A stretch of DNA of 32,000 nucleotides from Candidatus Velamenicoccus archaeovorus (GTDB taxonomy: Bacteria; Omnitrophota; Gorgyraeia; Velamenicoccales; Velamenicoccaceae). Below the pieces are notes generated by a model. That model saw only the letters and a list, made by a program, of their open reading frames with translations. It searched no databases and had not been told where the DNA came from. The translations under genes and the position numbers were made by a program. Numbering within the stretch: the first letter of the stretch is position 1; the number at the start of each line of letters is the position of its first letter. Location of the stretch: the NCBI RefSeq assembly GCF_004102945.1, contig NZ_CP019384.1, positions 930,001 to 962,000 on the forward strand, read 5' to 3'. Below are positions 1 to 30,041 of this stretch, one piece after another.

Positions 1-259
1 GATTGGAACCGGCAAAGAAATCCACGATCGCCTCGCGCAAACGCGCCAGCTCTTTGAGGCGGGCCTTGCCGGAGACATTGTCCAGAGTCAAGTCGATCAG
101 CTCAAGAGACCGTTCGAATGCCATTTGGCTGTAGGCCGGATTTTGTTTTTTTTTCCAGCTCAAGGCCCTCTCCACCTCGCTTCCGATATGGGCCATTTGT
201 TCCAAAAACGGCAGGCGGCCCCATCGCCCCTGCGCAAGTTCTTTGTGATGCAGGTTCAT
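1..259 (-). CDS. hypothetical protein; C-terminus lies beyond the window edge (86 codons visible)
   Basis: Absent from the ORF track because no stop lies inside the window. My minus-strand translation from ATG 259..257 reads MNLHHKELAQGRWGRLPFLEQMAHIGSEVERALSWKKKQNPAYSQMAFERSLELIDLTLDNVSGKARLKELARLREAIVDFFAGSN and stays open to nt 2. The ATG overlaps the TGA (258..256) of the upstream gene as ATGA. Family not recognised with certainty. Confidence 0.5.
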   Translation of the reverse strand, partial: MNLHHKELAQGRWGRLPFLEQMAHIGSEVERALSWKKKQNPAYSQMAFERSLELIDLTLDNVSGKARLKELARLREAIVDFFAGSN

Positions 260-597
260 TGTTGGACCCTTTTTCTGACGACGGCGATGATTTTTTTGCG
301 CATGCCTTCATCCTCAACCCCGAGGCTTCTATTGTTTTGAGAAGGACGCATGTTGATCATGGAATCAAATTCTATATGGTCGTCTCCTGGAATGTCGGGA
401 TAAAGATTGATTCCCCAGAGGCTATTCTGTTTTGACCCCGCATCCAAAAGCATCGCTTCCAGGTCGGAATGAAGCTCGGCATCGACGGCAAGAAGTTCCT
501 TGTCGACATCGACGACGGCTTTGACGAGGTTTCCGAACCTGCGGACTGCCATGCCTTTCAATTCATCTAAGGTTAATTTTTCGGAGATGATTTTCAT
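256..597 (-). CDS. DUF5674-like small protein (113 aa)
   Basis: ORF-track ORF 256..672 trimmed to ATG 597 (MKIISEKLTLDELKGMA...). The longer form would overlap the radical SAM gene by 64 nt. The blocks KAVVDVDKELLAVDAELHSDLEAMLLDAGSKQNSLWGINLYP...IEFDSMINMRPSQNNRSLGVED match my recollection of the DUF5674 family. AGGA lies about 9 nt upstream. Confidence 0.6.
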   Translation of the reverse strand: MKIISEKLTLDELKGMAVRRFGNLVKAVVDVDKELLAVDAELHSDLEAMLLDAGSKQNSLWGINLYPDIPGDDHIEFDSMINMRPSQNNRSLGVEDEGMRKKIIAVVRKRVQQ

Positions 598-608
598 TCG
601 AGCTGTTC

Positions 609-1550
609 CTAAACGGGTCGAAATTCCCTGGATCCGAAGAGCCGGGGATATTCGATCCACGGGCCTTCGCATTGATTAAACCAGCGGCACGGCGCGCACG
701 TCGGGAATTTCGTTTTGGCCTGGAATTTACGGACGATATCGAAATTGTCGACCGTTTGGTGGATTTCCTTGCATTGAGCCGGTGGAATAAAAAATTCGGA
801 AGCGCAGCGTTCATAAGGCGCCAGGAGACAAAACGGCACGGCCTCCACCATGACGCGCCGTCCAGCCCGCAGGCCGATCTCAAGTCCCTTCTTGATGAAC
901 GGCGCCGCCGCGCCGGCTTTCGGGACGATTTTTTTGTAGTAAATCATGGCGTTGCCTTGGATATGGACAAAAGCGAACTGGAACTGGATGACGCCTAGCT
1001 TGACCAGCAGTTCTGCCAGTTCGGGCAAAAAACGGTAATTCTGTTTTGTCACGACCGTGTTGGTGAGCGTTTTGATCCCCAGGCGGCACATGTTGTGGAT
1101 CCCCAGAACGGTCTGACGCCAGCTTCCCGGAGAACGCGTGAGGCCGTCGTGGATGGCCGCCGTCGGGCCGTGGAGCGCAGGCGCGAACGTCGTCATCCCC
1201 GCGCGTATCATCTGTTTGCAGAAATTCTCGTCCGCGAATTTCCGGCCGTTGGTCTGTATCTGGATTTCGGTGAAACCTGTCGCTTTGGCAAAGGCGACAA
1301 TTTCTTCGATGTCCGGCCTTATGCTGACTTCTCCTCCTGTCAGGACCACATCGGTTTTTCCTTCGCGGAAGGATTCGACGAGCTCGCGCTTGATCTGGCC
1401 GGTTGTCTTCTCGCCGAAAGGCCTCTTGTCCGCAACGACACAGAACAGGCAGTCGTTGGAACATTTGTACCCTACCTTGAGGTCGACCCGGCGGATCACA
1501 GGAACTTCATCTACGAAGTCTTGTTGAGGTAAAACAGGTAGTTTGCCCAT
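609..1550 (-). CDS. radical SAM enzyme with Cys-rich C-terminal (SPASM/twitch-like) extension
   Basis: 313 aa. CxxxCxxC motif CSNDCLFC (C30/C34/C37, nt 1440..1463). GGE-type motif VVLTGGEVS, and IQTNG. Six more Cys in the last 75 aa (C241, C249, C260, C285, C288, C294), including C-x2-C-x5-C (PTCAPCRWFNQCEG). ATG 1550 overlaps the upstream ORF by 40 nt; GTG at 1499 (V18) is an alternative start. Confidence 0.85.
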   Translation of the reverse strand: MGKLPVLPQQDFVDEVPVIRRVDLKVGYKCSNDCLFCVVADKRPFGEKTTGQIKRELVESFREGKTDVVLTGGEVSIRPDIEEIVAFAKATGFTEIQIQTNGRKFADENFCKQMIRAGMTTFAPALHGPTAAIHDGLTRSPGSWRQTVLGIHNMCRLGIKTLTNTVVTKQNYRFLPELAELLVKLGVIQFQFAFVHIQGNAMIYYKKIVPKAGAAAPFIKKGLEIGLRAGRRVMVEAVPFCLLAPYERCASEFFIPPAQCKEIHQTVDNFDIVRKFQAKTKFPTCAPCRWFNQCEGPWIEYPRLFGSREFRPV

Positions 1551-1735
1551 TCAAGGACGTCTTTCAACTGAGCGTTTTTCAATTCGCAGTGACGATAGCT
1601 TTTATCTTTGGTTTTCAACTCTTTGACCCATCCCTTGTCCTCTTTGAGGAGGCGGTCAAGGGGTTCTTGTTTGTAAAGGTCTTTATGGAACTTGAGAACG
1701 AAACTATTTTTTCCCTTTTTTTGCAACGGAAACAT
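1511..1735 (-). CDS. small HxsD-like protein (74 aa), short paralog of the 136-aa protein upstream
   Basis: ATG 1735 overlaps the upstream stop by 32 nt. It aligns by eye with the N-terminal two thirds of the 1704..2114 product (FVLKFHKDLY... / ...VLEWANYLFYLNK versus IILNAKIYAK... / ...MEFYNELLNYAHY). Coding status is supported mainly by this paralogy and by its position in the coupled operon. Confidence 0.45.
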   Translation of the reverse strand: MFPLQKKGKNSFVLKFHKDLYKQEPLDRLLKEDKGWVKELKTKDKSYRHCELKNAQLKDVLEWANYLFYLNKTS

Positions 1736-2114
1736 TCTTTTCTTCCTCCTCGAGCTCTTTGATCAGGTCTTCGATTTCTTTTTCCTCGGCCTCCTGGACG
1801 AGCGATGGGGCTGTTGAGAACAGGGCCCTCTGCATGAGCGATTTGATGGCATCGGCGTTGGCCTTGACGCGCGTGAAGTAATGCGCGTAATTCAACAGCT
1901 CATTATAAAATTCCATGGCCAGTTTTTTCAGATCGGCCGACTCATTCTGGGGGTACAGATAGACGAAGAATTTGTCCGCTGACTGGTCCAGCAGGATATA
2001 AGCCTTGTCCAGGAAGACATACCCGGCCGCAAAGATCGTTTCTTTGGCATATATCTTGGCATTCAGGATGATCTCGGCGTGGTCAGCCGCGATCTTGATG
2101 TGTTTTTCTGGCAT
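1704..2114 (-). CDS. HxsD-like small protein (136 aa) with acidic/lysine-rich tail
   Basis: ATG 2114 has AGGAG (2120..2124) upstream. AEIILNAKIYAKETIFAAGYVFLDKAYILL...FVYLYP...LAMEFYNELLNYAHYFTR resembles the HxsD accessory protein of His-Xaa-Ser radical-SAM systems, whose signature I recall as LLNDYxLRE. The family call is from memory only. Confidence 0.55.
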   Translation of the reverse strand: MPEKHIKIAADHAEIILNAKIYAKETIFAAGYVFLDKAYILLDQSADKFFVYLYPQNESADLKKLAMEFYNELLNYAHYFTRVKANADAIKSLMQRALFSTAPSLVQEAEEKEIEDLIKELEEEEKNVSVAKKGKK

Positions 2115-2180
2115 TTCTTCTCCTTTGATGGTTGGGTGTTGTCGAGGGGAACGAAAGAGTTTTGCGGGACATGAAATATT

Positions 2181-2621
2181 TTATGTGCAAAGATAAATGT
2201 CCTTGACAGCGATATCCGCATAATTGTTTGGGTTGTTTGTGTTGCGGATCTCGACGCGGTCGCGGACGTATATTCCCAGGACGTTATCGCTGGCGAGCAT
2301 GATGCGCGAGTCGTAATCGCCGGAATCGTTGTGGAAATCGATGTAAGGCGTATAACCGCTGCTGCTGCCTCCCAGCTCGATCGAAGCCCCTTGGTCGCTG
2401 GTGAGGGCGCCGTATGAAGTGCTCCCTCCCCATGTCAGTTCCCCGGCGTTGCCGAAGGCCCTGGAATTGCCAACGGCCATCCTGCTGGCGCGCAGGTCCG
2501 AATAGACACCGAAGGGTGAAGGATAATATGTCGTGATCCTGACCTGTTCCTGGGCCAGCGCTGCCTGGGAGAGGGTGAATAAAACCAAGACCGAGCCTAT
2601 CGCGAGGAATATCGTCTTCAT
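2181..2621 (-). CDS. secreted protein of unknown function (146 aa), paralog of 2650..3132
   Basis: ORF 2181..2780 trimmed to ATG 2621. The product starts with a Sec signal peptide MKTIFLAIGSVLVLFTLSQAALA|QEQ. GGAGG lies at 2633..2637. It shares QVxITTYxPSPxGVxS, WGG, DQGxSIExG and PYxxF blocks with the neighbouring gene. Confidence 0.7.
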   Translation of the reverse strand: MKTIFLAIGSVLVLFTLSQAALAQEQVRITTYYPSPFGVYSDLRASRMAVGNSRAFGNAGELTWGGSTSYGALTSDQGASIELGGSSSGYTPYIDFHNDSGDYDSRIMLASDNVLGIYVRDRVEIRNTNNPNNYADIAVKDIYLCT

Positions 2622-2649
2622 ATATTTATCAACCTCCGGTTGCCACGAA

Positions 2650-3132
2650 CTACAGGTATTGAAGGTTTGCTTTTTCAATGGTTCCGTTCTGCCAGCCCCA
2701 GAAATAATAGATTTTCTGCAAGTGGATATCTTTCCATAAACTCCTGTCCAGATTAAAAATGGAAAAGTTGTTCCAGACATAAATATAAAGCCTGTTGTCG
2801 TTATAGAGTTGGACCCTTGTGGTCACGGCGCCTTTGTTAAAGCGGACATAAGGCTGTGCAGCACTGCTTCTGCCGATTTCGATCGACGAACCCTGGTCGC
2901 CTTGCAGCCGCCCCATGGAGTTGGCGCCTCCCCACGCGAACGAACCGTCGCCGCCGGCATATCCAAGCGTCGAGCTGGCGACGCCACGGCTCATGCGTAT
3001 GTAGGAGAAAACACCGTTTGGCGATGGAAAATATGTCGTGATTGTCACCTGGTCCTGTTGCGCCTGGGCCAGGATATTCCATGCGGCCAAAAAGGCCGCC
3101 ACCACGATGAAAAACAATTTCTTTTTGCTCAT
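2650..3132 (-). CDS. secreted protein of unknown function (160 aa), paralog of 2181..2621
   Basis: ATG 3132. Signal peptide MSKKKLFFIVVAAFLAAWNILAQA|QQDQ. Mature region aligns with the downstream paralog. There is no SD; a near-consensus promoter abuts the ATG. Confidence 0.7.
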   Translation of the reverse strand: MSKKKLFFIVVAAFLAAWNILAQAQQDQVTITTYFPSPNGVFSYIRMSRGVASSTLGYAGGDGSFAWGGANSMGRLQGDQGSSIEIGRSSAAQPYVRFNKGAVTTRVQLYNDNRLYIYVWNNFSIFNLDRSLWKDIHLQKIYYFWGWQNGTIEKANLQYL

Positions 3133-3138
3133 ACTAAA

Positions 3139-3167
3139 ATTATATAATCAAAAAAGACAAAATGCAA
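3139..3167 (-). promoter_or_regulatory. sigma70-type promoter TTGCAT-N17-TATAAT, 6 nt upstream of the ATG (candidate leaderless transcript)
   Basis: Minus strand reads taaTTGCATtttgtcttttttgattaTATAATtttagtATG. The -35 is at 3167..3162, the -10 at 3144..3139 and the ATG at 3132..3130. Confidence 0.4.
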
Positions 3168-3254
3168 TTATTTGTTTGTTTCTAACCTATTTTTTCCGAA
3201 AAGTTTACGAGAAAGCCGTTCGATAGAAGTTCTGCGTTTAAGATATCTGCGATT

Positions 3255-5084
3255 TTATCTGCGGCCGCACGCTTCGTTGATGGATTTGAGCACGGAATTG
3301 ATGGGTAAAGCCAGGATGTCATCCAGGGAAAGAGGCAAAACCAGGGTCCAGTTTTTTTCAGAGAGCGTCCCTGGGAAATTGATGCGGTTCTCCCAAGGAT
3401 CGACTTCATAGAGCTGGTCGAGATCCAGGTAGTCCTGGATCAATTGGATGCCGAAGATACAGGCGCTTTCCTGGATTTTTGTCAGGGCATTTTTGATGAA
3501 GGTCGTGGAACAGCTGTCCGGGTTTTCTTTTTCCAGGTCCAGGAATTGAAGGAACTGCCGTTTTTCCTTGAATGATCCCCGGTACATATCCAGGAGGGCC
3601 CATGCTTCGGAGGGTGTCGTTTCAAGGACGCCGAGAAGTTTTTCCTCGGTATCGATCTCTTGTTTCCATCGCAGGCGTCCATGGCGCGACGCCGCCGTGT
3701 CGAAAAGTGTTTCTTTGATGCGGTCGAAAGCGATATTCTTTTTTTCGCAATTTCTGCGGAATAACGCTTCGTCGACCGTCCCGCATTCAAAATCCCACCA
3801 GGCGCAAAGGTTGCTCATGTCGTGCGTCGCGATCGTCGCCAGGGCGCATTTGCGGTAGTCTTCGGGGGATTTGAACGCATAGCTCTTGCCCCACTCGCGC
3901 ATCCAGCGCTGCACGTCGATGCCGGGAATGCCCATCTCGTTGAGGACCTTGAAACAACAATTCGGCACAGTCCCCAGGTCTTCGGCGCAGGCCAGCATGC
4001 TGGAGTGCTTGACCATCAGGGTCAGGAGGTCTTTGCCGTGTTTTTCCCATGTGTTCTCGTCGGCAGGATCGAAGGCGCCGTTGAGGCCGCCGTTTTCCGG
4101 AGGTTCCGACAAGGGAATGGTCCACACACGGAAGATCCCCACGACGTGGTCGATCCGGTAGAGGTCGTAAAAGTTCTGGGCATATTTCAGTTTTTCGATG
4201 ACGTAATCGTAACGATGATGCGCGATGCGGTCCCAGTTGAACGGCGGCATACCCCAACGCTGCCCTTTGGAATACAGGAGATCCGGTGGCGCTCCCGACG
4301 AAAGGTCCAGTTTGAAACAGTCTTGGTGCGACCAGACATCGGCTGAGTCTCTTGATACGAGAAAAGGAATGTCTCCCATGAGGAGCACATTGTTTTTTTG
4401 GGCGTAACTCCTGGCGTCCCTGAATTGCTCGAAGAGCTGCCATTGCAGCCATTGATGGAACAGGATGTTTTGCCTGTAGGCCTCGCGGAATGCCTGCAGG
4501 GCCGTTTTCCCGCGGTTCTTTAAATCCTCCGGCCATCCTTCCCAACCCATGCCCCCGTTCCTTTCTTTAATGACCTTGAAGAGCGCGTAATCCTCGATCC
4601 AGAAGGCGTTGTCCTTCAAGAAGGAGCCGAAGCCGTCCGCCCCCTCAGGAGATATAGATGAGAAGATATCCCAGAGGAGATCGAGCTTGGCTTTTTTAAT
4701 CTGGTAGTCGACCCTCGGACGGCCGGCAGGGAATTTATCCTTGATTTCGAGAAGACGCGGCAGGAAAGGCTTGATATCGGCGCCTTTGAGTTTTTCCAGA
4801 CGCAGATAAAGCGGGTCGAGCGCGAACATGCTCTGGGCATCGTAGGGCCTGAAGTCGAAACCTGTGTCGTTCATGGGCAAAAGCTGGATGATGCTCATGC
4901 CGCAGGCCTTGCACCAGTCAACGAGGAGATGGATGTCGGGAAGCTCGCCTATCCCTGTGCTTTTGGCGCTATAAACAGAGAATAACGGAACGACAACGCC
5001 TGCCCGCCGGTGGATACCGATGCGTTTCCATTGGTCGGCGGTGATCGTTGACAACAGATATGTGTAGTTAGGAAACGACGTCAT
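3255..5084 (-). CDS. malQ: 4-alpha-glucanotransferase (amylomaltase, GH77)
   Basis: 609 aa. The N-terminal block GVVVPLFSVYSAKSTGIGELPDIHLLVDWCKACGMSIIQLLPMND, plus IDHVVGIFRVW and CAEDLGTVP, are typical MalQ/GH77 blocks. Confidence 0.9.
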   Translation of the reverse strand: MTSFPNYTYLLSTITADQWKRIGIHRRAGVVVPLFSVYSAKSTGIGELPDIHLLVDWCKACGMSIIQLLPMNDTGFDFRPYDAQSMFALDPLYLRLEKLKGADIKPFLPRLLEIKDKFPAGRPRVDYQIKKAKLDLLWDIFSSISPEGADGFGSFLKDNAFWIEDYALFKVIKERNGGMGWEGWPEDLKNRGKTALQAFREAYRQNILFHQWLQWQLFEQFRDARSYAQKNNVLLMGDIPFLVSRDSADVWSHQDCFKLDLSSGAPPDLLYSKGQRWGMPPFNWDRIAHHRYDYVIEKLKYAQNFYDLYRIDHVVGIFRVWTIPLSEPPENGGLNGAFDPADENTWEKHGKDLLTLMVKHSSMLACAEDLGTVPNCCFKVLNEMGIPGIDVQRWMREWGKSYAFKSPEDYRKCALATIATHDMSNLCAWWDFECGTVDEALFRRNCEKKNIAFDRIKETLFDTAASRHGRLRWKQEIDTEEKLLGVLETTPSEAWALLDMYRGSFKEKRQFLQFLDLEKENPDSCSTTFIKNALTKIQESACIFGIQLIQDYLDLDQLYEVDPWENRINFPGTLSEKNWTLVLPLSLDDILALPINSVLKSINEACGRR

Positions 5085-9485: not shown

Positions 9486-11399
9486 TTATTCCCGGGCCGG
9501 GTCAAATGTTGCGATGACGCCGCTGCGGCGGCCGCAGACAATGCGACGCAGGGCCTTCTCTGTTTCCCCGAGTTCCTTGTATTTGATAAGCATTTGATAG
9601 CGGAAACTCCCGCGCAACTTAAACGGCCTGGCGGGTTGCGGCTCAAAAATTTCTGCGGCCGTCGCGTGTCGTTTAAGGGATGTCTTGAGGATCCGAAAAG
9701 CTCTTTTCGCCGCGCTCAGGGCAACGGGTTCTGCGGCCGCCCTTATTGTCAGGATCCCCAACCTGACAACAGGCGGCAAGTTGAGTTCGCGCCGTTCTTC
9801 AAGCTCTTTTTCGAGAAAACCCGCAGTATCCCGTGTTTTAAGAAATCCCCAGACATAATGTTCGGGCATTTTTGTCTGGATGATGAGTTCGCCTGTGGTG
9901 ATGCGCGACAATGTCAGGAAACGGCGAAAGGCATCTTCCGTTGCGCGAAAATCAGGCCGCCCAAGCATGAGGTCCGCCGAAACCACGACGATCCGGTCGA
10001 AACAATGCCTGAAGACATTCGGGTCTTCCAGGATTTCCTGCGTCGCCAGCATTATATCATAAGATTCCGACGGCTCGGCAGTCTTTGAGAATTGCACGAC
10101 CCTGACGGACGGGAAAAGCCTGTGCAGCTCGCTCTCGACTTTTTCAATCCCGAAACCCGAATAGCGCACGTAAGCCGCTGAACATGTGGGGCAGATGTCC
10201 CTGGCCTCTTGCTCCAGATGGCATGCCGGGCAGATCAAACGCTTGATGGTGCGGTAATACGCCACAGGAGAGCTACAGCGTTCGCATTCGACGGCTTTTT
10301 TGCATCTTGGGCAATAAAGAAATGTCGAGAATCCCTTCTGGGGCACGAAGAAAAGCATTTTTTCTTTCTTTTCAAGCAGCTCCGCCACGCGGAATTCCAG
10401 CACTTTGGAGACCATTTTTGTATGGCCCTTGGGAACGAATTCCTGCTGCATATCGACGACGGTGGTCCGCGGCGCCGTTCGCGGCTCACCGCAGCTCAAC
10501 AAAGAGGCTTCCTGGCGTTCCACCAATGCAAAGGCCTCCAGAGAAGGAACGACAGCCCCAAAGACAAGCTTTGTCCCTTCAGCTTGCGCAATTTTGAGCG
10601 CGATATCCCGGATGTGATAATTGGGAACCTGCTGTTGACGATAGGCGAAGTGTCCTTCCTGGTCGACAATGATAAGACCCGGCCGGCGGACCGGAGAAAA
10701 AATCGCGCTGCGTGTTCCTATGACCAGGACCCCTGTTTTCTGCTGCGCTCTTGTCCAGGAATTTCGTACAACAGCCGGTTTCTCGTGGGAAGAGATGACG
10801 CAGGCCGTGATACCTGTTTTTAATTGTTCGCGGGCGTGGGCGATCATCGCATAATCCGGGACAAGCACAAGGGCGTCCTTGCCTTGGGCAAGCGTAGATT
10901 TGACGAGGGCGAGATAGGCCTTCCAGCGCGCATTGCCGGACACATCCTCAAGCACATAGATATTCTTGCGCGGATCCAAGCGATCCAGGAATGCTGTCTC
11001 TTCTTGTGTCAGAGGATCGAGCGAAGAAGGCGTATCGTCGGACACGGTCGTTGCGATATGGCCCATTGAGATTCTTAGGGGGCGGGGCAGGACAGTTTCA
11101 AACCCTTGGGCCAGGGAACAAAAATATTCACGGCTCAGGAAGTGCGCCAACGATATCAGGCGGTCGTTCAGCAACGGCCCATGAGGATCGAGGCATTCCG
11201 ACAAGGGCTTGAGTTTTTTTTCATAGGGAGATGTGCGCTTAAAAGCTGTCACATAACCTATGAGTTGTCTGCGGCCGAAAGGGACCCGGACGCGGCATCC
11301 GACGGCCAGGCTGCTGCGGCAGCGGGCCGGAATACGATAATCGAATGTTTCGTCCAGGGCCAAAGAGACGGGGATTGCTATCTCGGCGATTTTTTTCAT
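9486..11399 (-). CDS. priA: primosomal protein N' (PriA) homolog with degenerate helicase/ATPase motifs
   Basis: 637 aa, collinear with E. coli PriA as I recall it. The N-terminal DNA-binding region, LAQGKDALVLVP, VIGTRSAIF, the four-CxxC zinc region (CPRC..CERC..CPAC..CPTC) and the C-terminal domain are all present. Walker A reads DVSGNARWKAY, DEEH reads DQEGH, GSATP reads GAVVP, and no GRAGR is present. Confidence 0.8.
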   Translation of the reverse strand: MKKIAEIAIPVSLALDETFDYRIPARCRSSLAVGCRVRVPFGRRQLIGYVTAFKRTSPYEKKLKPLSECLDPHGPLLNDRLISLAHFLSREYFCSLAQGFETVLPRPLRISMGHIATTVSDDTPSSLDPLTQEETAFLDRLDPRKNIYVLEDVSGNARWKAYLALVKSTLAQGKDALVLVPDYAMIAHAREQLKTGITACVISSHEKPAVVRNSWTRAQQKTGVLVIGTRSAIFSPVRRPGLIIVDQEGHFAYRQQQVPNYHIRDIALKIAQAEGTKLVFGAVVPSLEAFALVERQEASLLSCGEPRTAPRTTVVDMQQEFVPKGHTKMVSKVLEFRVAELLEKKEKMLFFVPQKGFSTFLYCPRCKKAVECERCSSPVAYYRTIKRLICPACHLEQEARDICPTCSAAYVRYSGFGIEKVESELHRLFPSVRVVQFSKTAEPSESYDIMLATQEILEDPNVFRHCFDRIVVVSADLMLGRPDFRATEDAFRRFLTLSRITTGELIIQTKMPEHYVWGFLKTRDTAGFLEKELEERRELNLPPVVRLGILTIRAAAEPVALSAAKRAFRILKTSLKRHATAAEIFEPQPARPFKLRGSFRYQMLIKYKELGETEKALRRIVCGRRSGVIATFDPARE

Positions 11400-11411: not shown

Positions 11412-12524
11412 TCAGAGTTGGGCTTCGATAAGATTGACGATATCGACCGTGGAAGCCGGCCGGGCCAAGGCGCGGCAATTAGCGCGGAAGGCATAGAGCT
11501 TTTGTTCGTTCTTTTTAAAATCGAGCACTTCTTTTTCTATGGCCTCCAGGCCGGAAACAATCCTGCCTGCGCCCAGGGCCTGCATCGTATTGGCATTGAT
11601 GGTTTCCTGGCCGGGCAAAAGACAAAAGAGGATCATGGGCAGTTCCATGTTCAAGGCTTCTGTGACGCTCAATCCTCCTGCTTTCGTAACCATGACATCG
11701 GAAACGCGCATCAGTTCCTGCATATTGTCCACGAAACCGAAGGCTTTGATATGAGGATGCCTCATATCGGTAAGGGCCTGATGAAGTTTTTTGTTGTGGC
11801 CGCACACCACCAGGAGCTGCGCATCGTTCTTGAGCCTGTCGGCTATTTCCGCGATAGGGCCTATGCCGATGCCGCCGGTGGCGACCAGAACGGTGAATAC
11901 CCCCTCTTTGACTTCAAGCTTTTTACGGACAGCCGCGGCCTCGTCGACATGGAGGAATTTTTCATCCAGGGGGATGCCCGTCACGACGATTTGCGATTCG
12001 CTGATGCCTTTTTTCATCAGGATATCTTTGGTCGAAGGGGCAGCCGCGCAATAGAGGTCGGTACCGGGGTTGACCCAAAAGTTATGGACGCCGTAATCTG
12101 TGACGACGGTGATGATGCGGGCCTTCAGTCTTTTCTTTATTTTGGCATAGGCGGCGATCTCGGAAGCCAAAAATTGCGTGGAGATGATGATGTCCGGGTC
12201 CTCATCAAGCAAAAAACGCACAAAGGACCTGCAGGCCATGACGTCCATGAAACGCCGCAGGCCCACATTGATCCAGGACAGCCGGGGGCTGTCGCTTAAA
12301 CGATACATCACGGCCCAGAGCCACGGCAGATGGCTGATGACGAACGTATATCCGTCCGAGTAAAGTTTTCTGACAAGAAACGGCATGTATTTGACGACGT
12401 CCGCCGTATGGACATTGCGGTATGCGGATTTTGCCTTATGGAAAATGGCTTCGGCCGCTTTTTTGTGGCCGGAGCCCGCCGTGGCATAAAGGATCAGTAT
12501 TTTCTTGGAATCTTCGACTGTCAT
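11412..12524 (-). CDS. MGDG-synthase-like / processive diacylglycerol glycosyltransferase (GT28, UgtP-like)
   Basis: 370 aa. KILILYATAGSGHKKAAEAI N-terminus; VTDYGVHNFWVNPGTDLY; C-terminal GT28 block VVCGHNKKL...MVTKAGGLSVTEALNMELPMI. Confidence 0.75.
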   Translation of the reverse strand: MTVEDSKKILILYATAGSGHKKAAEAIFHKAKSAYRNVHTADVVKYMPFLVRKLYSDGYTFVISHLPWLWAVMYRLSDSPRLSWINVGLRRFMDVMACRSFVRFLLDEDPDIIISTQFLASEIAAYAKIKKRLKARIITVVTDYGVHNFWVNPGTDLYCAAAPSTKDILMKKGISESQIVVTGIPLDEKFLHVDEAAAVRKKLEVKEGVFTVLVATGGIGIGPIAEIADRLKNDAQLLVVCGHNKKLHQALTDMRHPHIKAFGFVDNMQELMRVSDVMVTKAGGLSVTEALNMELPMILFCLLPGQETINANTMQALGAGRIVSGLEAIEKEVLDFKKNEQKLYAFRANCRALARPASTVDIVNLIEAQL

Positions 12525-13225
12525 GTGGCCAAAAACTCCCGGATTATTTTAAGCCGTTCCTGCGTTCCCATATCGTAAAAAGGACCTTGGGCGACGTACG
12601 CCGCCAGATCGTGATTCCGGATAAGGATGTCATAGACGTCTTCTTCCAGAGAGCAAGGGCGTCCTGCAGGGATTGTCTGCAACAGGTCGTGCTTAAAGAC
12701 TCCGACCCCGCCGGATGCGTAGCTGGCCCCGGAGGATGGAAGTTTTTTGTGATATGCTTTCACGAGTCCATCCTCATTTGTGGTGATATTGAAGGCAGGC
12801 CGGCAGGACGGGTCTTTTGAGACGGCGATCGCACCCATCCTGTCTTGTCGATAAAAAAAGTCGACTAATTCATGAAGTTCAAGCGGAAAGAGCGTATCGC
12901 CGTTCATCAAAATGAAATTGCCGGATATTTTATTCTCGGCCAGCTTGAGGGCGCCGCCTGTTCCCAGCGGCGTCTCTTCGTGAGAATAGGCGATATGCAG
13001 GTCCAGCCCGACGCCGTCCTTGAAATATTCCTCGATCCGCTTGCCCAGATAACCTGTAAGGATCAGGATATCGCGATATCCTTGCGCCTTAAGCATCTGG
13101 AGATCATAATACAGGAAGGGCTTCCCGTGGATGGGCACCATAGGTTTCGGGATGTCGTCCGTCAGGCGGCCCAGGCGCGTCCCCCTGCCGCCGGCTAAAA
13201 TGACAACCTGCATATTTTTGCTCAT
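12521..13225 (-). CDS. sugar-1-phosphate nucleotidyltransferase (HddC-like, possibly heptose-1-P guanylyltransferase)
   Basis: 234 aa. VVILAGGRGTRLGRLTDDIPKPMVPIHGKPFL NTP_transferase signature. It lies immediately downstream of gmhB. Its stop forms an ATGA overlap (12521..12524) with the start of the next gene (11412..12524). Substrate is inferred from context only. Confidence 0.75.
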   Translation of the reverse strand: MSKNMQVVILAGGRGTRLGRLTDDIPKPMVPIHGKPFLYYDLQMLKAQGYRDILILTGYLGKRIEEYFKDGVGLDLHIAYSHEETPLGTGGALKLAENKISGNFILMNGDTLFPLELHELVDFFYRQDRMGAIAVSKDPSCRPAFNITTNEDGLVKAYHKKLPSSGASYASGGVGVFKHDLLQTIPAGRPCSLEEDVYDILIRNHDLAAYVAQGPFYDMGTQERLKIIREFLAT

Positions 13226-13237
13226 CCATCCAGCTTT

Positions 13238-13276
13238 TTAATGAGACTTTAAGGTCTGGCCTAAAAGTCTCATTAA
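13238..13276. repeat. 13-bp perfect inverted repeat with 13-nt loop spanning the gmhB stop codon
   Basis: ttaatgagacttt (13238..13250) and aaagtctcattaa (13264..13276). It is followed on the minus strand by AAAAAGC rather than a U-tract, and lies 12 nt upstream of ATG 13225. Confidence 0.5.
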
Positions 13277-13830
13277 GCGCGTTCGTATCTATTGCCGACG
13301 ATGTGTCTGGCGGCGTCCAGAAGGTTCTTGGCGATGAAATCCGGCAGGACATCCCAGCCGCCGGCGTTTTCGAGCTTCTCGCGGCCGGAAAGCACAAGGA
13401 TCGTCTTGCAACCGAAAAGCTTTCCTGCCTTGACATCTCTTAGGCTGTCGCCGATAAAATATGAATTATCTTTATCCGCTTTTTGGCCCGCCGTCGCCTG
13501 TTTTAAGAGGCCGTCTTTGGGTTTTCTGCAGGCGCAGTTCATCGCGTCGGTATGCAGGCAATAGAGGGCTTTTTCGATCCTGCCTCCCTGCCGCTTTGCC
13601 TGGGTCAGCATACGGTCTGTCATCTTGTCCAGCGTTTCTTTGGAATAAAGCCCTTTGGTGACACCAGCCTGATTGGATATCACAAAGATGCGATAGCCTG
13701 CCTGTGTCAGAAGTCTTACGGCCCGTAAAGACCCGGGCAGAAAACGGAAATCACGCAAACGGGTCACGTATTTGCCGTCGCCGGGGTATTTGTTGATAAC
13801 GCCGTCCCTGTCAAGAAATATGAATTTCAT
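13273..13830 (-). CDS. gmhB: D-glycero-D-manno-heptose 1,7-bisphosphate phosphatase (HAD-IIIA)
   Basis: 185 aa. FLDRDGVIN HAD motif I; ISNQAG motif II; the GmhB zinc motif C-x-H-x5-C-x-C-RKP (CLHTDAMNCACRKPKDGLL); YFIGDSLRD motif. Confidence 0.85.
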   Translation of the reverse strand: MKFIFLDRDGVINKYPGDGKYVTRLRDFRFLPGSLRAVRLLTQAGYRIFVISNQAGVTKGLYSKETLDKMTDRMLTQAKRQGGRIEKALYCLHTDAMNCACRKPKDGLLKQATAGQKADKDNSYFIGDSLRDVKAGKLFGCKTILVLSGREKLENAGGWDVLPDFIAKNLLDAARHIVGNRYERA

Positions 13831-13872
13831 GCCGGTGGGGTTTTGACTTCAGAACACAATTTTAATAACTGG

Positions 13873-13901
13873 TTGACATCGCAGGTAATAATGATAAAAA
13901 T
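13873..13901 (+). promoter_or_regulatory. candidate promoter TTGACA-N17-AAAAAT, 6 nt upstream of the ATG (possible leaderless transcript)
   Basis: ggTTGACAtcgcaggtaataatgatAAAAATaatagcATG. The -35 is at 13873..13878. The -10 is weak (4/6). The geometry matches the 3139..3167 promoter, and there is no SD before ATG 13908. Confidence 0.3.
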
Positions 13902-13907
13902 AATAGC

Positions 13908-15011
13908 ATGGAAAATCAAGCGCGTAAAGAACGCATTCTTGTTGTTCAGCCTTACGGCATCGGCGATACGCTTTTTATCTTTCCTCTTCTCAAAGCCCTC
14001 AAGCTCCAAAGAGATGCAGAACGCCTCGATGTCATCATCGGCCCCAGGACCCGCCAGCTAATGCAGCTCTGTCCCTATGTCGATGAAATCCACGTCATCG
14101 ACAAGGACCTATGGAAACGCATATCCAAGATCGCCGTTTTGCGTGAAAAAATAAAACTTCTTTTCCATTGCGCCTCGAGACATTATGACCTGGCTTTCGA
14201 TTTTTCCATGCAGCCCGAATATTCTTTTTGGGCCAAATTCTTCCTGCGTATTCCCATCATAGCGGGTTTCAATTATAAGAAGAGGAATATCTTTCTTAAC
14301 AAACCTCTGAACCTTCCTGAGCAGGGCTACAGCGGTAAAAGCGTCATTGAATACGTATGCGATTTGGCCGGCTTGATCGGACTGGACATTGCCGACAAAA
14401 AGCCGGAGTTAAGGCTTTCTTCGAATGTCGAAGCAGCGGCGGAGAAACTTCTAAAAGATGGCGGCTGGAGCGGCGGACGCTATATTGTCGTTTCAGCCGG
14501 CGGAGGCGCAACGTGGGGCATGGATGCCTATTACAAACAATGGCCGCCGGAATATTTTGTGCAGTTTTTGAAGCTGTTGGGGGTCTTTTTCGATCCCGGC
14601 GCTATCGTGCTTCTAGGGACAGACGACGAGCGGCGTTTCGAAAAGCTTTTTTCCGGTTTATCGGCGCCCATCATCCCTCTTTTCGGAGAAACGGACATCG
14701 CCGAAGCCGCAGCTATTATCAAACATGCCGCTTTATTCATCGGAAATGACGGAGGCCTGGCCCATATCGCTTCCTGCCAGGATATTCCGATGGCCGTTTT
14801 TTATGGGCCTGCCGACCCGAAAGTTTACGGTCCTTATCCTTCAAGAGAAAATGCCGTCGTCTTATCCAGGCGGCTCCCTTGTCAGCCTTGTTATCAGTAT
14901 TTCCGCTATAATAAATCCTGCCAGGACATCGCCTGCCTTAGAGGGCTTCTGCCTGAAGATGCCTTGGCGCAGCTTAATGAAAGACGTTTTTTTGAATTTT
15001 TTAAGAAGTGA
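13908..15011 (+). CDS. glycosyltransferase family 9 (LPS heptosyltransferase-like)
   Basis: 367 aa; the only plus-strand gene. ILVVQPYGIGDTLFIFPLLKALK N-terminus; LLGTDDER; LFIGNDGGLAHIAS; typical GT9 layout. Confidence 0.8.
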   Translation: MENQARKERILVVQPYGIGDTLFIFPLLKALKLQRDAERLDVIIGPRTRQLMQLCPYVDEIHVIDKDLWKRISKIAVLREKIKLLFHCASRHYDLAFDFSMQPEYSFWAKFFLRIPIIAGFNYKKRNIFLNKPLNLPEQGYSGKSVIEYVCDLAGLIGLDIADKKPELRLSSNVEAAAEKLLKDGGWSGGRYIVVSAGGGATWGMDAYYKQWPPEYFVQFLKLLGVFFDPGAIVLLGTDDERRFEKLFSGLSAPIIPLFGETDIAEAAAIIKHAALFIGNDGGLAHIASCQDIPMAVFYGPADPKVYGPYPSRENAVVLSRRLPCQPCYQYFRYNKSCQDIACLRGLLPEDALAQLNERRFFEFFKK

Positions 15012-15023
15012 TCCTGAAGGCGT

Positions 15024-16730
15024 TTAATTCTTCCTTGCCAGATAATCCCCTATCGCCAGATACTCCAGGCCCGATTCCCGGAACATGAGGATGGCATCTT
15101 GCGGCGAGCAGATCATGGGTTCTCCGCGCCTGTTCAAGGATGTATTGATGACGACCGGGACTCTTGTCTTTTTGTGGAAGAGACTGATCAGGCGGTGGAA
15201 TTTTGGGTTGTGGCGTTCATCGACCACTTGCGGTCTGCAGGTGCCGTCCACGTGGACGGCCTCGGGGATCCGTTCTTTCCAGTGGGGCGCCACGTCAAAG
15301 GCGAACGTCATGAAAGGCGCGGGGTGATCGGATCCCAGGATGTCGGAGGCATATTCCTTAAGCATGGACGGGCAGAACGGTCGCCAGCTCTCGCGGAACT
15401 TGATGATGGCGTTGATGCGGTCGTTGGTCCCGCGGATGGTCGGGTTCCCCAGAATGGATCTGTTGCCCAGGGCCCTGGGGCCCCACTCCATTCTTCCCTG
15501 GAACCAGCCGACGATCTTGCCGTCTTTCAGCAGCGAAGATGCCGTCTCGCAGATGTCGGCGCACTTCTCAAACCGAAAACCCGAGGCCTTGAGCACAGGC
15601 TCTATCTGGGCGTTGGTGAATTCAGGGCCGAGATAGACGTGTTCCATGGGGGCGATCTTGTCTCCAAGCTGGGCGGCGACGTAGGCGGCGGCACCCAGCG
15701 AAGTCCCGGAATCGTGCGACGACGGCTGGACCCATAGCTGTTTGACCAGAGGATGCTGGATTAGTTTTCTGTTGATTGAAACATTTAAGGCGCACCCTCC
15801 TGCGAAACAAAGACGGCCTGAGCGTTTCAGGGATTTTTGCAGGCGGTTTTCCAAGAGATGCAGCACAATATCCTCAAAAGTCTTCTGGGTGGCCGCGGCA
15901 ATGTGGATATAGGGTTCAGCCAGGCTGTCTCCTGTGCGCGGCAGCCCCCAATCTTCCACCATTTTTTTAGGGATCAAAACATCAGGATGATAGCGTTGTG
16001 TCCGGATGGGCCAGACATAGTCGTCCGCCACTCGAAAATCCCTACCTTTCGGCCAGATGATATGGGACATGGGGATCTTGCCGGCATCTCCGTAGGGCGC
16101 CATGCCCATAACTTTATACTCGCCGTCACCGATCTCAAAGCCGAGATACGCCGTAACCGTAGAATAAAAATACCCCAGGGAATCCGAAAAGACGATCTCG
16201 TGTAACTTTTCAATTTTTCCATTTCTCGATTCGGCAAAAAGACACGTGGTAAGTTCTCCGGCGCCGTCCAAAGAGAGGATGGCGCTATCTTCGTAACCGG
16301 AAAAATAATAGGCGCTGGCCGCATGGGCCATATGATGCTCTACCAGGTGTATCTTGATGCGCGAACGGTCGATATGGGCTTGCGCAAGCGTGTCGTAGAG
16401 CTTCTTAAGCGCCGCCTCATTTTTCTTTTTTTCCTGTGCGATCACCTTAAAAGCGCGGGAAGTCCTCTTGAATAAAATCCTTCTGGCTACCCTCCATTTC
16501 AGCTGATGATAGATGCTCGTCGACCATGGATAGGCGACATGGTCGATATCCTCGGGTGTCAGGCCGGCGGTCTCAAGGCAAAAGCGTATGGCGTTGACCG
16601 GCAATTGGCCCTCCGCGTGTTTTTTTCTCGTGAAACGTTCTTCGTCGGCCGCAGCAACGACCTTTCCGTCAACGATCAGGGCCGCCGATGGGTCGTGTGT
16701 CAGCGCGCCGCAAATACCGAGGATGACCAT
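15024..16730 (-). CDS. carbamoyltransferase (NodU/CmcH/TobZ family), copy 1
   Basis: 568 aa. Kae1-like N-domain blocks ILGI...HD(P/A)SAAL..DGKVVAA.EEERF and HHMAHAASAYY..; GEYKVMGMAPYG; C-terminal Carbam_trans_C/YrdC-like part NTSLNRRGEPMICSPQDA. Confidence 0.9.
   Translation of the reverse strand: MVILGICGALTHDPSAALIVDGKVVAAADEERFTRKKHAEGQLPVNAIRFCLETAGLTPEDIDHVAYPWSTSIYHQLKWRVARRILFKRTSRAFKVIAQEKKKNEAALKKLYDTLAQAHIDRSRIKIHLVEHHMAHAASAYYFSGYEDSAILSLDGAGELTTCLFAESRNGKIEKLHEIVFSDSLGYFYSTVTAYLGFEIGDGEYKVMGMAPYGDAGKIPMSHIIWPKGRDFRVADDYVWPIRTQRYHPDVLIPKKMVEDWGLPRTGDSLAEPYIHIAAATQKTFEDIVLHLLENRLQKSLKRSGRLCFAGGCALNVSINRKLIQHPLVKQLWVQPSSHDSGTSLGAAAYVAAQLGDKIAPMEHVYLGPEFTNAQIEPVLKASGFRFEKCADICETASSLLKDGKIVGWFQGRMEWGPRALGNRSILGNPTIRGTNDRINAIIKFRESWRPFCPSMLKEYASDILGSDHPAPFMTFAFDVAPHWKERIPEAVHVDGTCRPQVVDERHNPKFHRLISLFHKKTRVPVVINTSLNRRGEPMICSPQDAILMFRESGLEYLAIGDYLARKN
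15038..15678. repeat. 641-bp direct repeat, copy A (100% identical to 17707..18347)
   Basis: I compared every 60-nt line by eye at an offset of 2669 nt and saw no mismatch from 15038 to 15678. The first mismatches are at 15679 and 15681, and identity then decays to ordinary paralog level. The repeat covers the last ~213 codons of the carbamoyltransferase gene. Confidence 0.95.
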
Positions 16731-16733
16731 GAA

Positions 16734-17696
16734 TCAACTCCGCATGTTTGGTTTTTTCATGAAAAGACTGCCCAGAAAAAAACTGTCCGGGCAGTTGTCG
16801 AAAAGGATTTGATTGCCGACGATCTCCACGCCTGCCGGCTCGACGACATCGCGTAAAAGTCTGTCTTTCAGGCCGTAACGCAACCCCTTGTCCAGCCGCG
16901 GGTCATTGCGTCCCGCATCATAATCGAATGTCACGGCAACCATCCCACCGGGTTTTAAAACTCTGTTGATTTCCTGCATTGTCTTGCGCCGGACCTCTGG
17001 AGGCAGGTGCTCCAGGACACAGATACAATAGATTTTGTCGAAGCTTTCGTTTCGGAACGGCAACGGCCGGGCAAGGTCGCGGTTGTAAAGACGCATGTTC
17101 CATCCCATGCGGCGCGCCGCATATCTGGCATTGTAGATTAAACCGTGCTGCCCCCAGTCATAATCAAGGACGTGCGTCGAACAGCCCAGCGACGCCACAT
17201 AGAAAGAGAATACCGTAGAAGCGCCCCCCAAATCCAGCACGATGTCGGTGGCCTGCGGCATTGCATGGGTCAAGATCCAGGCGTTTTCCCAGAGTTTGTT
17301 ACGTTCCTTCTCCGATATAAAATCTTTAGCCTTAAAGCTGCCAGCGGCAGAGGTGCATCTTAATCCTGAAGTCTGGAGTCTTGTGCGGAGGTCTTCTAAA
17401 GCAAGGGCTAAGGCATGGGTGCGGGTTTCGGCAAGATCGGTCTCGCGCTCCATAAACGTTTTATTGATGACAGGGATCTTGGCAGGACCAAGACAGGCTT
17501 CCTGCATAAATGTCTCTTCTTGCGTTTTTGTTATCGCGCCGGATTTTTTTCTGGGTATCCGTTTGGCCAGGGATCTTGTCCATTTGACAGCCAACAGATA
17601 AAGACGATAGGTCAATGGAACGCAACGCGGCACGATATCGTCGCAAAATAATATCCTGAATGTCGTGCTGTGCCTGCGTTTTTTAGGTTCCGTCAT
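16734..17696 (-). CDS. class I SAM-dependent methyltransferase
   Basis: 320 aa. VLDLGGASTVFSFYVASLG (motif I variant); FDKIYCICVLEHLP; INRVLKPGGMVAVTFDYD. The start forms an ATGA overlap (17693..17696) with the upstream carbamoyltransferase. The N-terminal ~130 aa has no recognisable motif, so a later start (M64 or M82) is possible. Confidence 0.7.
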   Translation of the reverse strand: MTEPKKRRHSTTFRILFCDDIVPRCVPLTYRLYLLAVKWTRSLAKRIPRKKSGAITKTQEETFMQEACLGPAKIPVINKTFMERETDLAETRTHALALALEDLRTRLQTSGLRCTSAAGSFKAKDFISEKERNKLWENAWILTHAMPQATDIVLDLGGASTVFSFYVASLGCSTHVLDYDWGQHGLIYNARYAARRMGWNMRLYNRDLARPLPFRNESFDKIYCICVLEHLPPEVRRKTMQEINRVLKPGGMVAVTFDYDAGRNDPRLDKGLRYGLKDRLLRDVVEPAGVEIVGNQILFDNCPDSFFLGSLFMKKPNMRS

Positions 17697-19405: not shown

Positions 19406-20208
19406 AAGTCTTTTCTGTGCTCTGTAATCTGTTCTCTGCTCTCTGTTTTTTGTTCTTTTTCATCAAGCATCTGGCGGAATTTTGCATAGCTGATCAACTG
19501 ATACATTGTATCGTAAAAAGCTACCATGAAACCGATATAGCCGTCTTTCCAGCCTTTCTTTCCGATGTAACGTCTGAAGAAGCGGTCAATAGCCCTCCAG
19601 GCGATCCGGCCGCGACCCATTTTTCTGTTTGTCGTGATCCATTTCTGAGCTTCCAGCGTCGTCTGACGATTGAGGCTGGCTAAAAAGTGGCCGAAATCCG
19701 GATATCCTTTGTGGACGATGTCGCATTTCAGATGGCCGCAGGTGCCGTCGACAAAAGCCCTTGGATGGACGACGACATCTTCATATTTGAATTTATTCTT
19801 GTCGAAAAGCCTTACCTTGGCCGCCGGATACCAGCCGCCGTAACGCACCCAGTGGTTCCCTATATAGTTACGCAAAGGCACGGAAAAACAGGCATGCTCC
19901 GTTGAAGCGATGGCGGCAGTTATCTCCGATTGAAGCTCCGGTGTCACGGTCTCATCTGCATCAAGGCTCAAGACCCAGGCATTACGGGCCTGCGCATAGG
20001 CCCAATTGCGATGGGTGCCCTCCACGTCCATTTTTTTAATGAGGACCTTATCCGCCAGCTCCTGGGCGATAGGTACCGTTTTATCGGAGCTCATATCGTC
20101 TACGACGATGATTTCGTCCGCCCAGCCTTTAAGAGATTTGATACAAGCGGCGATATTTTCTTCTTCATTTTTTGTCAGTATCACAACGCTCAACCCTGTC
20201 TTAGACAT
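19402..20208 (-). CDS. glycosyltransferase family 2
   Basis: 268 aa. LSVVILTKNEEENIAACIKSL, IIVVDDMSSDKT and LSLDADE (DxD) are typical GT-A/GT2 blocks. Confidence 0.85.
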   Translation of the reverse strand: MSKTGLSVVILTKNEEENIAACIKSLKGWADEIIVVDDMSSDKTVPIAQELADKVLIKKMDVEGTHRNWAYAQARNAWVLSLDADETVTPELQSEITAAIASTEHACFSVPLRNYIGNHWVRYGGWYPAAKVRLFDKNKFKYEDVVVHPRAFVDGTCGHLKCDIVHKGYPDFGHFLASLNRQTTLEAQKWITTNRKMGRGRIAWRAIDRFFRRYIGKKGWKDGYIGFMVAFYDTMYQLISYAKFRQMLDEKEQKTESREQITEHRKDL

Positions 20209-21310: not shown

Positions 21311-21426
21311 AAGAAGAGTCCTTTCACTGTTTAAAACTGAAGCCCCATGGGCCTGCCCTTGGCCTTGAGGCCAGGGCGAGCCCGTGGGTCCTTTTTGATT
21401 CGCCCGTGGGGCGACGTCCCGATCCA

Positions 21427-24107: not shown

Positions 24108-24132
24108 CTTTCATATGTTAAGCGACGATGTA

Positions 24133-26076: not shown

Positions 26077-26085
26077 CGTGATAGG

Positions 26086-29026: not shown

Positions 29027-29045
29027 AGATCCAGTGCACCCAAAA

Positions 29046-30029: not shown

Positions 30030-30041
30030 AGAAACGCTCCT

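Follow-up and report, generated by a model that had tools for sequence, protein, structure and literature searches.

A probable divergent His-Xaa-Ser maturation cassette with an inserted DUF5674 gene pair in Candidatus Velamenicoccus archaeovorus

The His-Xaa-Ser (HXS) system was reportedly defined bioinformatically by Haft and Basu in 2011, with the families TIGR03976-03979. Its function as an antiphage system, which blocks the entry of phage DNA, was demonstrated in 2026 (Li et al., Nat Commun 2026, PMC13128918). Both the N-terminal cleavage of HxsA and a mass increase of 8 Da (+8 Da) on its last HxS repeat require HxsB, HxsC and HxsD, binding between HxsC and HxsD was demonstrated by pull-down, the cysteines of the second iron-sulfur cluster of E. 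coli HxsC are C342 and C345, mature HxsA is a periplasmic, peptidoglycan-anchored protein, and canonical HxsA has a signal peptide in addition to the peptidoglycan-binding domain, which is essential in the E. coli system (PMC13128918). Of the canonical HXS systems, 99.7% are found in Pseudomonadota, and the gene order is D-B-C-A in 99.6% (PMC13128918). Here, we describe a 32-kb stretch of the genome of the Omnitrophota bacterium Candidatus Velamenicoccus archaeovorus (the window), whose positions 1-2114 very probably represent the promoter-proximal part of a divergent HXS-type maturation cassette, with hxsB and hxsA located past the window edge and with a pair of genes, one of them coding for a DUF5674 protein, inserted. 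The window was compared with the V. archaeovorus genome annotation, with the metagenomic contigs L001-L060 and with the P0017 contig.

In near-identical contigs (98.6% for L001) and in V. archaeovorus itself, hxsB starts 114 nucleotides (nt) past window position 1. The protein of 478 residues encoded in L001 (L001:5624-7057) scored 385.9 bits against TIGR03978 (HxsB), above the cut-off of 370, and the counterparts in L002 (390.6 bits) and in L005 and L007 (about 415 bits) scored higher still. In the V. archaeovorus annotation of NCBI, this gene product is named 'His-Xaa-Ser system radical SAM maturase HxsB' (QAT16988.1). In L001 and L002, hxsB is directly followed by HxS repeats, which in L007 are encoded nearby. 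The respective protein following hxsB, HxsA, consists of 90 residues, MGPKKKRKIEKTLHEFIKDESGFVSKEKILKIGLGTISALGILSAFSANLIAGHTNHSSHANNLGITPYSTRCVKIDHVSHYSHSSHGSY, has the tail ...HTNHSSH...HVSHYSHSSHGSY in L001, L002 and L016, and is identical to the protein BU251_04190. Against the HxsA3 model, the L001 HxsA reached 39.1 bits (cut-off 65), and the HxS-repeat protein of L007 reached 57.6 bits against HxsA4, above the cut-off of 55. Across lineages, the HxsA peptides have a basic N-terminus, the motif F(I/L)xDE(E/S)Gx(I/V)SK, one hydrophobic segment and HxS repeats, often ending in SHxSY. The full cassette thus reads hxsD, short hxsD-like gene, hxsC-like gene, the inserted DUF5674 and 110-residue genes, hxsB (467-478 residues) and hxsA (90 residues).

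The original prediction, made from the window alone, had described a cassette with only one radical SAM gene, without a substrate gene and apparently undescribed. Its observation that no His-Xaa-Ser repeat is encoded nearby holds for every frame of the 32-kb window. Since hxsB and hxsA sit just past the edge, however, the single radical SAM gene and the absent substrate are artefacts of the window edge. Two of the four differences from the described system that had been listed are thereby lost, which makes the locus a cautionary case. Nor is the cassette undescribed, as HxsB is already annotated by NCBI in V. archaeovorus and HxsD is named in UniRef; the locus is partly annotated in public databases. 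The part of the cassette within the window consists of five open reading frames (ORFs):

1704..2114, minus strand: hxsD-like gene coding for a protein of 136 residues (A136), assigned by its NCBIfam HxsD score, by Pfam PF27806 on an identical protein and by an AlphaFold2 (AF2) model.
1511..1735, minus strand: short second HxsD-like gene coding for a protein of 74 residues (B74; 'HxsD-prime', HxsD_rel type), assigned by family profile and fold.
609..1550, minus strand: gene for an HxsC-like radical SAM enzyme of 313 residues, assigned by Pfam Radical_SAM and NCBIfam HxsC4/HxsC.
256..597, minus strand: DUF5674 gene, 113 residues, first gene of the inserted pair, assigned by Pfam PF18924.
1..259, minus strand: DUF5674 partner gene of 110 residues, represented by its 5' 86 codons and cut by the window edge, assigned by translation.

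These five minus-strand ORFs and their junctions had been predicted before and were borne out, including the overlaps and the cysteine motifs, by the ORF list, translation and arithmetic. Recalculated in the order from 2114 to 1, the first two junctions are overlaps of 32 and 40 nt, the third is a gap of 11 nt and the last one is an ATGA overlap. The last gene, previously found by hand translation, is real: the truncated ORF at 1-259 comprises 86 of the 110 codons of a gene that is complete in L001 (L001:5252-5584). The DUF5674 gene starts at 597, which fits the Pfam family and all homologs of 113 residues; the ORF list had an upstream ATG at 672. Strong Shine-Dalgarno sequences were found for the A136 gene (AAAGGAG) and the B74 gene (GAGGAGG). 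The start codon of the radical SAM gene is ambiguous: the ATG at 1550 creates the 40-nt overlap with the B74 gene and has no obvious Shine-Dalgarno sequence, whereas distant homologs align only from about residue 19, and a start at the GTG found there (1499) would put 11 nt between the two genes. The most conserved part of B74 (NYLFYLNKTS) is encoded in the stretch overlapping the radical SAM gene (window 1499-1550). The window aligned with L001, L016 and L017 at 98.5-99.3%. A136, B74, the DUF5674 protein and HxsA are each 100% identical to a V. archaeovorus protein, and the V. archaeovorus accessions QAT16987-16993 are consecutive, in agreement with the gene order of the cassette; an exact look-up of the 313-residue radical SAM sequence returned no record. 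Rfam gave no match in window 1-3400, and a scan for promoters and terminators yielded counts equal to the expectation from shuffled sequences and no intergenic terminator.

The cassette resembles canonical HXS in its SPASM-type radical SAM enzyme HxsB, which here scores above the curated cut-off, its HxsC-type radical SAM enzyme with a C-terminal CxxCx5C second cluster, its small, probable HxsD-family protein with an LLN(D)Y-type motif, and a small protein that has an export or hydrophobic segment at its N-terminus and carries His-Xaa-Ser repeats at its C-terminus. It differs in gene order, D-D'-C-(insert)-B-A instead of D-B-C-A, and in the extra 74-residue HxsD-like gene. Whereas canonical HxsC has about 387 residues, the enzyme encoded here has 313, lacks the N-terminal region of about 85 residues and shares 27% identity with a canonical HxsC; the identity of HxsB to its canonical counterpart is 30-33%; and HxsA has 90 residues instead of 214, no Pfam domain match, a conserved basic leader motif and the C-terminus SHxSY. 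Furthermore, the host phylum is Omnitrophota rather than Pseudomonadota, the locus belongs to the syntenic core genome and is envelope-related and not mobile, and it is linked to a family of secreted proteins. Among the NCBIfam variant families, HxsC4 (NF038332), HxsA3 (NF038309) and HxsD_rel (NF038315) were the best models for the radical SAM enzyme, HxsA and the B74 family, respectively, and the cut-off of HxsA4 (NF038313) was passed by the HxsA of a Woesearchaeota relative. The window proteins stay well under the cut-offs of these variants (HxsC4 500, HxsA3 65 and HxsD_rel 41 bits) and therefore fall into a further, uncurated subgroup. In the literature, we found no paper describing the variant families HxsC4, HxsA3, HxsA4 or HxsD_rel. 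The combination of an auxiliary-cluster radical SAM enzyme, a small partner of about 90 residues and a leader-bearing peptide is also reminiscent of PqqE/PqqD and of the SPASM maturases of ribosomally synthesized and post-translationally modified peptides (RiPPs) that carry a RiPP recognition element (RRE) domain. The predicted HxsD fold has no significant match in the PDB, and the likeness is one of analogy, not of membership.

The 313-residue enzyme matched Pfam Radical_SAM with 71.7 bits, and its best NCBIfam match was HxsC4 (NF038332; 151.7 bits, E 3e-44, cut-off 500), followed by HxsC (TIGR03977; 92.9 bits, E 1.6e-26, cut-off 267.9). By these scores, it is closest to HxsC-type enzymes. 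Compared with the canonical HxsC of Mesorhizobium, it is 27% identical over 208 residues; the N-terminal region of about 85 residues is absent, and the C-terminus of the Mesorhizobium protein has the same CxxCx5C motif. As predicted, the enzyme carries the cluster-binding motif CSNDCLFC (C30-x3-C34-x2-C37) and six C-terminal cysteines, among them C285-x2-C288-x5-C294. Four of the six (C241, C285, C288 and C294) are invariant among 120 aligned homologs, and the other two, C249 and C260, are not conserved. The four conserved cysteines would suit a single auxiliary cluster better than a complete SPASM domain, for which Pfam gave no match in this enzyme (PF13186; 7-8 cysteines for two auxiliary clusters), and the C-terminus is compatible with a single-cluster, twitch-like domain. 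HxsC-like and HxsD homologs apparently share a contig in at least 20 cases (contigs of at least 10 kb; co-occurrence inferred). In L004, an orphan HxsC-like radical SAM gene (L004:7959-8927; 54% identical) adjoins rpsO and pnp, with no HxsB, HxsD or HxsA within 8 kb, so the HxsC-like family does not always belong to an Hxs cassette. Scans with PADLOC, whose 2023 release predates HXS, and PHROGs returned only generic viperin-type radical SAM matches for the enzyme, and nothing for the small proteins.

A136 matched TIGR03976 (HxsD) with 33.5 bits (E 4e-8, cut-off 50). The database protein P0263/BU251_04220, which is 100% identical to A136, carries a precomputed match to Pfam PF27806 (HxsD) and is named 'His-Xaa-Ser system protein HxsD' in UniRef, and PF27806 was also precomputed for all of the best 120 A136 homologs listed. 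Below the NCBIfam cut-off as it is, the earlier assignment of A136 as HxsD-like was upheld by this evidence, and the protein probably belongs to the HxsD family on sequence grounds. In its AF2 model (mean predicted local distance difference test score, pLDDT, 83.9), a beta-beta-alpha-beta-beta-alpha core is followed by a long acidic C-terminal helix; the net charge of this tail is -8, and -20 in an archaeal homolog. The model of B74 (pLDDT 86.4) shows the same order of elements with near-identical spacing. Pairwise BLASTP between A136 and B74 was not significant (E 0.93). Alignment of the B74 family with the HxsD family by hhalign gave an E-value of 6e-4 over the full length of 73 columns, with a probability of only 28%. 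An exhaustive search for B74 homologs yielded 22 representative clusters of 62-101 residues, all but two of them 71-80 residues long; 13 of the 22 family members matched HxsD_rel (NF038315; best E 2e-5), and the B74 protein of the window gave no match to this model. In L002, L003, L010, L011, L020 and L023, the gene has kept its place after hxsD and before the hxsC-like gene, and Woesearchaeota relatives likewise have a pair of HxsD-like proteins, a long one (181-184 residues) and a short one (84-94 residues). The predicted presence of two paralogous HxsD-like genes is therefore supported by the profile comparison, the HxsD_rel matches of the family and the predicted topology, though not by pairwise similarity, and B74 probably holds as a second HxsD-like protein.

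The idea that B74 is the detached N-terminal domain of canonical HxsC was not supported, as hidden Markov models of the B74 and HxsD families were silent on residues 1-100 of Mesorhizobium HxsC. A PqqD/RRE-like fold of HxsD is at most a lead: with Foldseek, neither model had a PDB match better than E 0.04, PqqD and RRE structures were absent from the matches listed, and the top weak ones were type III secretion chaperones, Pcc1, Rpo11 and eIF1. On viral contigs, no HxsD was found.

Homologous cassettes were found over a wide range of identity. In Omnitrophota, the order malQ, secreted protein gene(s), hxsD, short hxsD-like gene, hxsC-like gene, hxsB and hxsA is kept down to 55% identity of the radical SAM enzyme (conserved in L010, L011, the P0017 contig and L020). 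From 99% down to 55% identity, the cassette is embedded in fmt-galT-gap-malQ synteny. Homologs reach Woesearchaeota, Diapherotrites and Patescibacteria; in Woesearchaeota, an HxsD-like protein, a second HxsD-like protein, HxsB and an HxsC-like enzyme are encoded together in the order D-D'-B-C. In L005, L008 and L019, the cassette is expanded by further HxsC-like genes. In the respective clusters of Woesearchaeota and Patescibacteria (L005:11765-15519, L008:5-3172 and L019:223-11758), the number of radical SAM genes is four to seven; several are HxsC-like, and one codes for a double radical SAM protein of 626-657 residues. The clusters lie beside HxsB and an HxS-repeat peptide and represent a heavy investment for very small genomes. 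On the opposite strand downstream of hxsA (L016:13016-15919; also in L010, L011 and L020), there is a conserved block of genes for a DUF2334/polysaccharide-deacetylase-like protein, a radical SAM enzyme of 424-444 residues and a prepilin peptidase (Peptidase_A24). The cysteine-rich proteins encoded after hxsA in L016 and L019 have no significant similarity to each other.

The mechanism that we propose for the cassette is drawn by analogy from the E. coli HXS system. In the cytoplasm, the HxsC-like enzyme would work with HxsB while in complex with either or both of the HxsD-like proteins; together, these proteins would modify the C-terminal HxS repeats of HxsA covalently, in a radical-SAM-dependent reaction, and would also trigger the N-terminal processing of HxsA. 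HxsA, which has a basic, conserved, leader-like N-terminus, one hydrophobic segment and a His-Xaa-Ser tail ending in SHxSY, would then insert into or cross the cytoplasmic membrane, such that the modified, histidine-rich tail faces the envelope, where it may hinder the entry of foreign DNA. More speculatively, A136 may use its acidic tail to dock the leader of HxsA, whose basic N-terminus has a charge of +3 to +9.

Several findings weigh against a straightforward transfer of the HXS assignment. The radical SAM enzyme, A136 and HxsA score below the NCBIfam cut-offs (92.9 vs 267.9, 33.5 vs 50 and 39.1 vs 65 bits, respectively) and are therefore relatives rather than equivalogs. HxsA has no Pfam match at E <= 0.1, so no peptidoglycan-binding domain was detected, and with 90 residues and one hydrophobic segment it leaves no room for this domain, which is essential in E. 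coli. The cassette is syntenic with fmt, galT, gap and malQ and adjoins envelope-glycan genes, and does not lie in a variable defence island. Finally, there are relatives in archaea without a periplasm, to which the peptidoglycan-anchored periplasmic mechanism cannot apply as it is described for canonical HXS. Because of the low scores, the small HxsA, the core synteny and the archaeal relatives, the antiphage role may not transfer; phage exclusion as the output of the cassette is uncertain, and its role may be broader.

The same observations lend some weight to a possibility that we regard as tentative, namely that the cassette is a true HXS homolog without antiphage function in Omnitrophota, in the Candidate Phyla Radiation (CPR) and in DPANN archaea, where it would provide a constitutive envelope component in the form of a modified, histidine-rich, membrane-anchored peptide. 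Such a peptide might act together with the secreted 'TTYYPSPYGVY' proteins described below, metal binding, attachment to host or prey and control of DNA uptake being possible roles. The preservation of housekeeping-gene synteny from 99% to 55% identity, the envelope polysaccharide genes in the surroundings, the presence of a secreted family member directly before even rearranged cassettes, the shortness of HxsA without any Pfam match and the relatives in archaea are all in line with this. On the other side, the block of phage DNA entry is the only function of an HXS system determined by experiment (PMC13128918), and a location in the core genome is compatible with defence.

The HXS-type reading of the cassette does not extend to the two genes between hxsC and hxsB. 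The DUF5674 protein matched PF18924 with 121.4 bits over residues 3-109 (gathering score 27) and has at least 8000 homologs at E <= 1e-5; among the best 120 listed, identity to the query ranges from 69 to 94%. The original prediction had regarded DUF5674 and the adjacent protein as coupled to the cassette. DUF5674 is, however, absent from relatives in which hxsB directly follows the hxsC-like gene (L002/L003, 83% radical SAM identity; L010, 77%; L011, 65%; P0017 contig, 60%; L020, 55%), and elsewhere the pair occurs in unrelated contexts. In junction alignments, the pair takes up precisely the space from the hxsC stop codon to the hxsB ATG, and the spacers vary among strains. The partner genes in L012, L013 and L015 are 61-65% identical to the 110-residue gene and have the same 4-nt overlap with DUF5674, and in three unrelated Omnitrophota contexts, the neighbours of the pair are HEPN/AbiEii, RelE/MqsA-like and Mrr genes. 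We conclude that the pair is a module in its own right and not a conserved part of Hxs; its insertion, into the hxsC-hxsB spacer of 8 nt, is confined to this lineage. As side observations, DUF5674 and the 110-residue gene form a two-gene unit at 4001-4671 in L012-L015, and in strains that are 98-99% identical to the window, indels of about 72 and 80 nt flank the insert (L016:9507-9589 and 10261-10380, compared with window 598-608). For the 110-residue partner, no match was found in Pfam, NCBIfam, PADLOC, PHROGs or the PDB, sequence and profile searches of the PDB gave nothing for either protein of the pair, and we found no mention of DUF5674 in the literature.

The pair may be addiction-like, that is, a toxin-antitoxin-like or otherwise selfish module inserted into the operon. 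Its two-gene organisation with a 4-nt overlap, its RelE/MqsA-like, HEPN/AbiEii and Mrr neighbours in other genomes, and its clean insertion into an intergenic spacer with flanks that vary among strains would suit such an element. The unusually high conservation of the best 120 homologs listed (69-94%) urges caution, as it would better fit a housekeeping pair; moreover, the pair matches neither PADLOC nor the Pfam toxin-antitoxin families nor the PDB, and DUF5674 was found at one locus only on 2.9 million viral contigs. On balance, we consider an addiction module rather unlikely.

Directly upstream of hxsD, two genes code for secreted proteins that had been proposed as candidate substrates:

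2181..2621, minus strand: secreted paralog 1, 146 residues, member of the family with the N-terminal motif QVTITTYYPSPYGVY; directly upstream of hxsD, a neighbour and not a demonstrated component of the cassette.
2650..3132, minus strand: secreted paralog 2, 160 residues, of the same family (phmmer between the two paralogs, E about 1e-24).

The two paralogs belong to a large Omnitrophota family with a signal peptide and the motif Q(E/D)Q(V/L)TITTYYPSP(Y/F)GVY. The position of paralog 1 is kept in L002, L003, L010, L011, L016 and L020. In a metagenome search with a query alignment of four sequences, an Hxs cassette was found immediately downstream in 7 of the 40 loci with the secreted motif; in three of these (L037, L038 and L058), the cassettes following the family member are distant and differently ordered. 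By a rough reckoning, this linkage exceeds chance adjacency and is real. With HxsA at hand, the secreted proteins are not needed as substrates, but the genomic linkage of the family to Hxs cassettes is genuine. Among the loci L021-L060, only the signal peptide and the N-terminal motif are common to the family members, which have variable C-terminal parts and 140-630 residues; tandem arrays occur in L041 and L046, and several small members end in aromatic-x-Cys.

The original prediction as a whole, a new maturase cassette with a single radical SAM enzyme, two HxsD-like proteins, DUF5674 and the unknown protein as partners and a substrate encoded elsewhere or among the secreted paralogs, agrees with the one radical SAM gene in the run and the lack of an HxS-repeat ORF in the window, with the tight spacing of the DUF5674 pair and the radical SAM gene and with the linkage of the secreted family, but it has become highly improbable with hxsB and hxsA within 2 kb downstream in the source genome as well as in all near-identical contigs, and with the DUF5674 pair missing in relatives of 55-83% identity that keep the cassette and found alone elsewhere. 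It is just as implausible that the 313-residue enzyme is a cofactor-type enzyme (MoaA/NirJ/AhbD-like) and a mere neighbour of the Hxs genes: some homologs are named 'cyclic pyranopterin phosphate synthase' by the Joint Genome Institute, the L004 homolog stands alone beside rpsO and pnp, and weak NCBIfam matches to AhbD (the next family, 73.1 bits), NirJ and MoaA were obtained, but these scores of 53.8-73.1 bits are far under their cut-offs of 325-515 and well under those for HxsC4 and HxsC, at least 20 homologs apparently share a contig with an HxsD homolog, and the gene is in translational overlap with an HxsD-like gene.

Apart from the cassette, window 11415-31085 represents an envelope-glycan region with genes for a monogalactosyldiacylglycerol (MGDG)-synthase-like glycosyltransferase, a heptosyltransferase, a DegT aminotransferase, GT4 glycosyltransferases and an O-antigen ligase-like protein. 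The same region contains tandem carbamoyltransferase paralogs (15027-16730 and 17696-19405) and a B12-binding radical SAM gene (22689-24107). An ORF of 647 residues at 24136-26076 had no Pfam match.

Returning to the divergent HXS-type cassette, we tentatively suggest that it belongs to a large HXS-like clade in ultra-small, host-associated lineages (Omnitrophota, Patescibacteria, Woesearchaeota and Diapherotrites). This clade, of which we found no description in the literature, would be characterized by paired HxsD paralogs, an N-terminally short HxsC and a miniature HxsA with leader and hydrophobic segment ending in SHxSY, and, in CPR and DPANN, by an increase in the number of radical SAM genes to between four and seven. 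In Omnitrophota, where the cassette is fixed in the core genome and linked to the secreted 'TTYYPSPYGVY' family, it might therefore supply the envelope constitutively with a modified peptide whose role differs from phage exclusion or goes beyond it. Whereas 99.7% of HXS systems were reported from Pseudomonadota, HXS cassettes that are strongly diverged but recognisable occur commonly in Omnitrophota and extend to bacteria of the CPR and to DPANN archaea. The versions in these lineages have a stripped-down substrate of 90 residues and a split HxsD pair. The locus thus raises the question of whether the ancestral role of HXS was defence at all.

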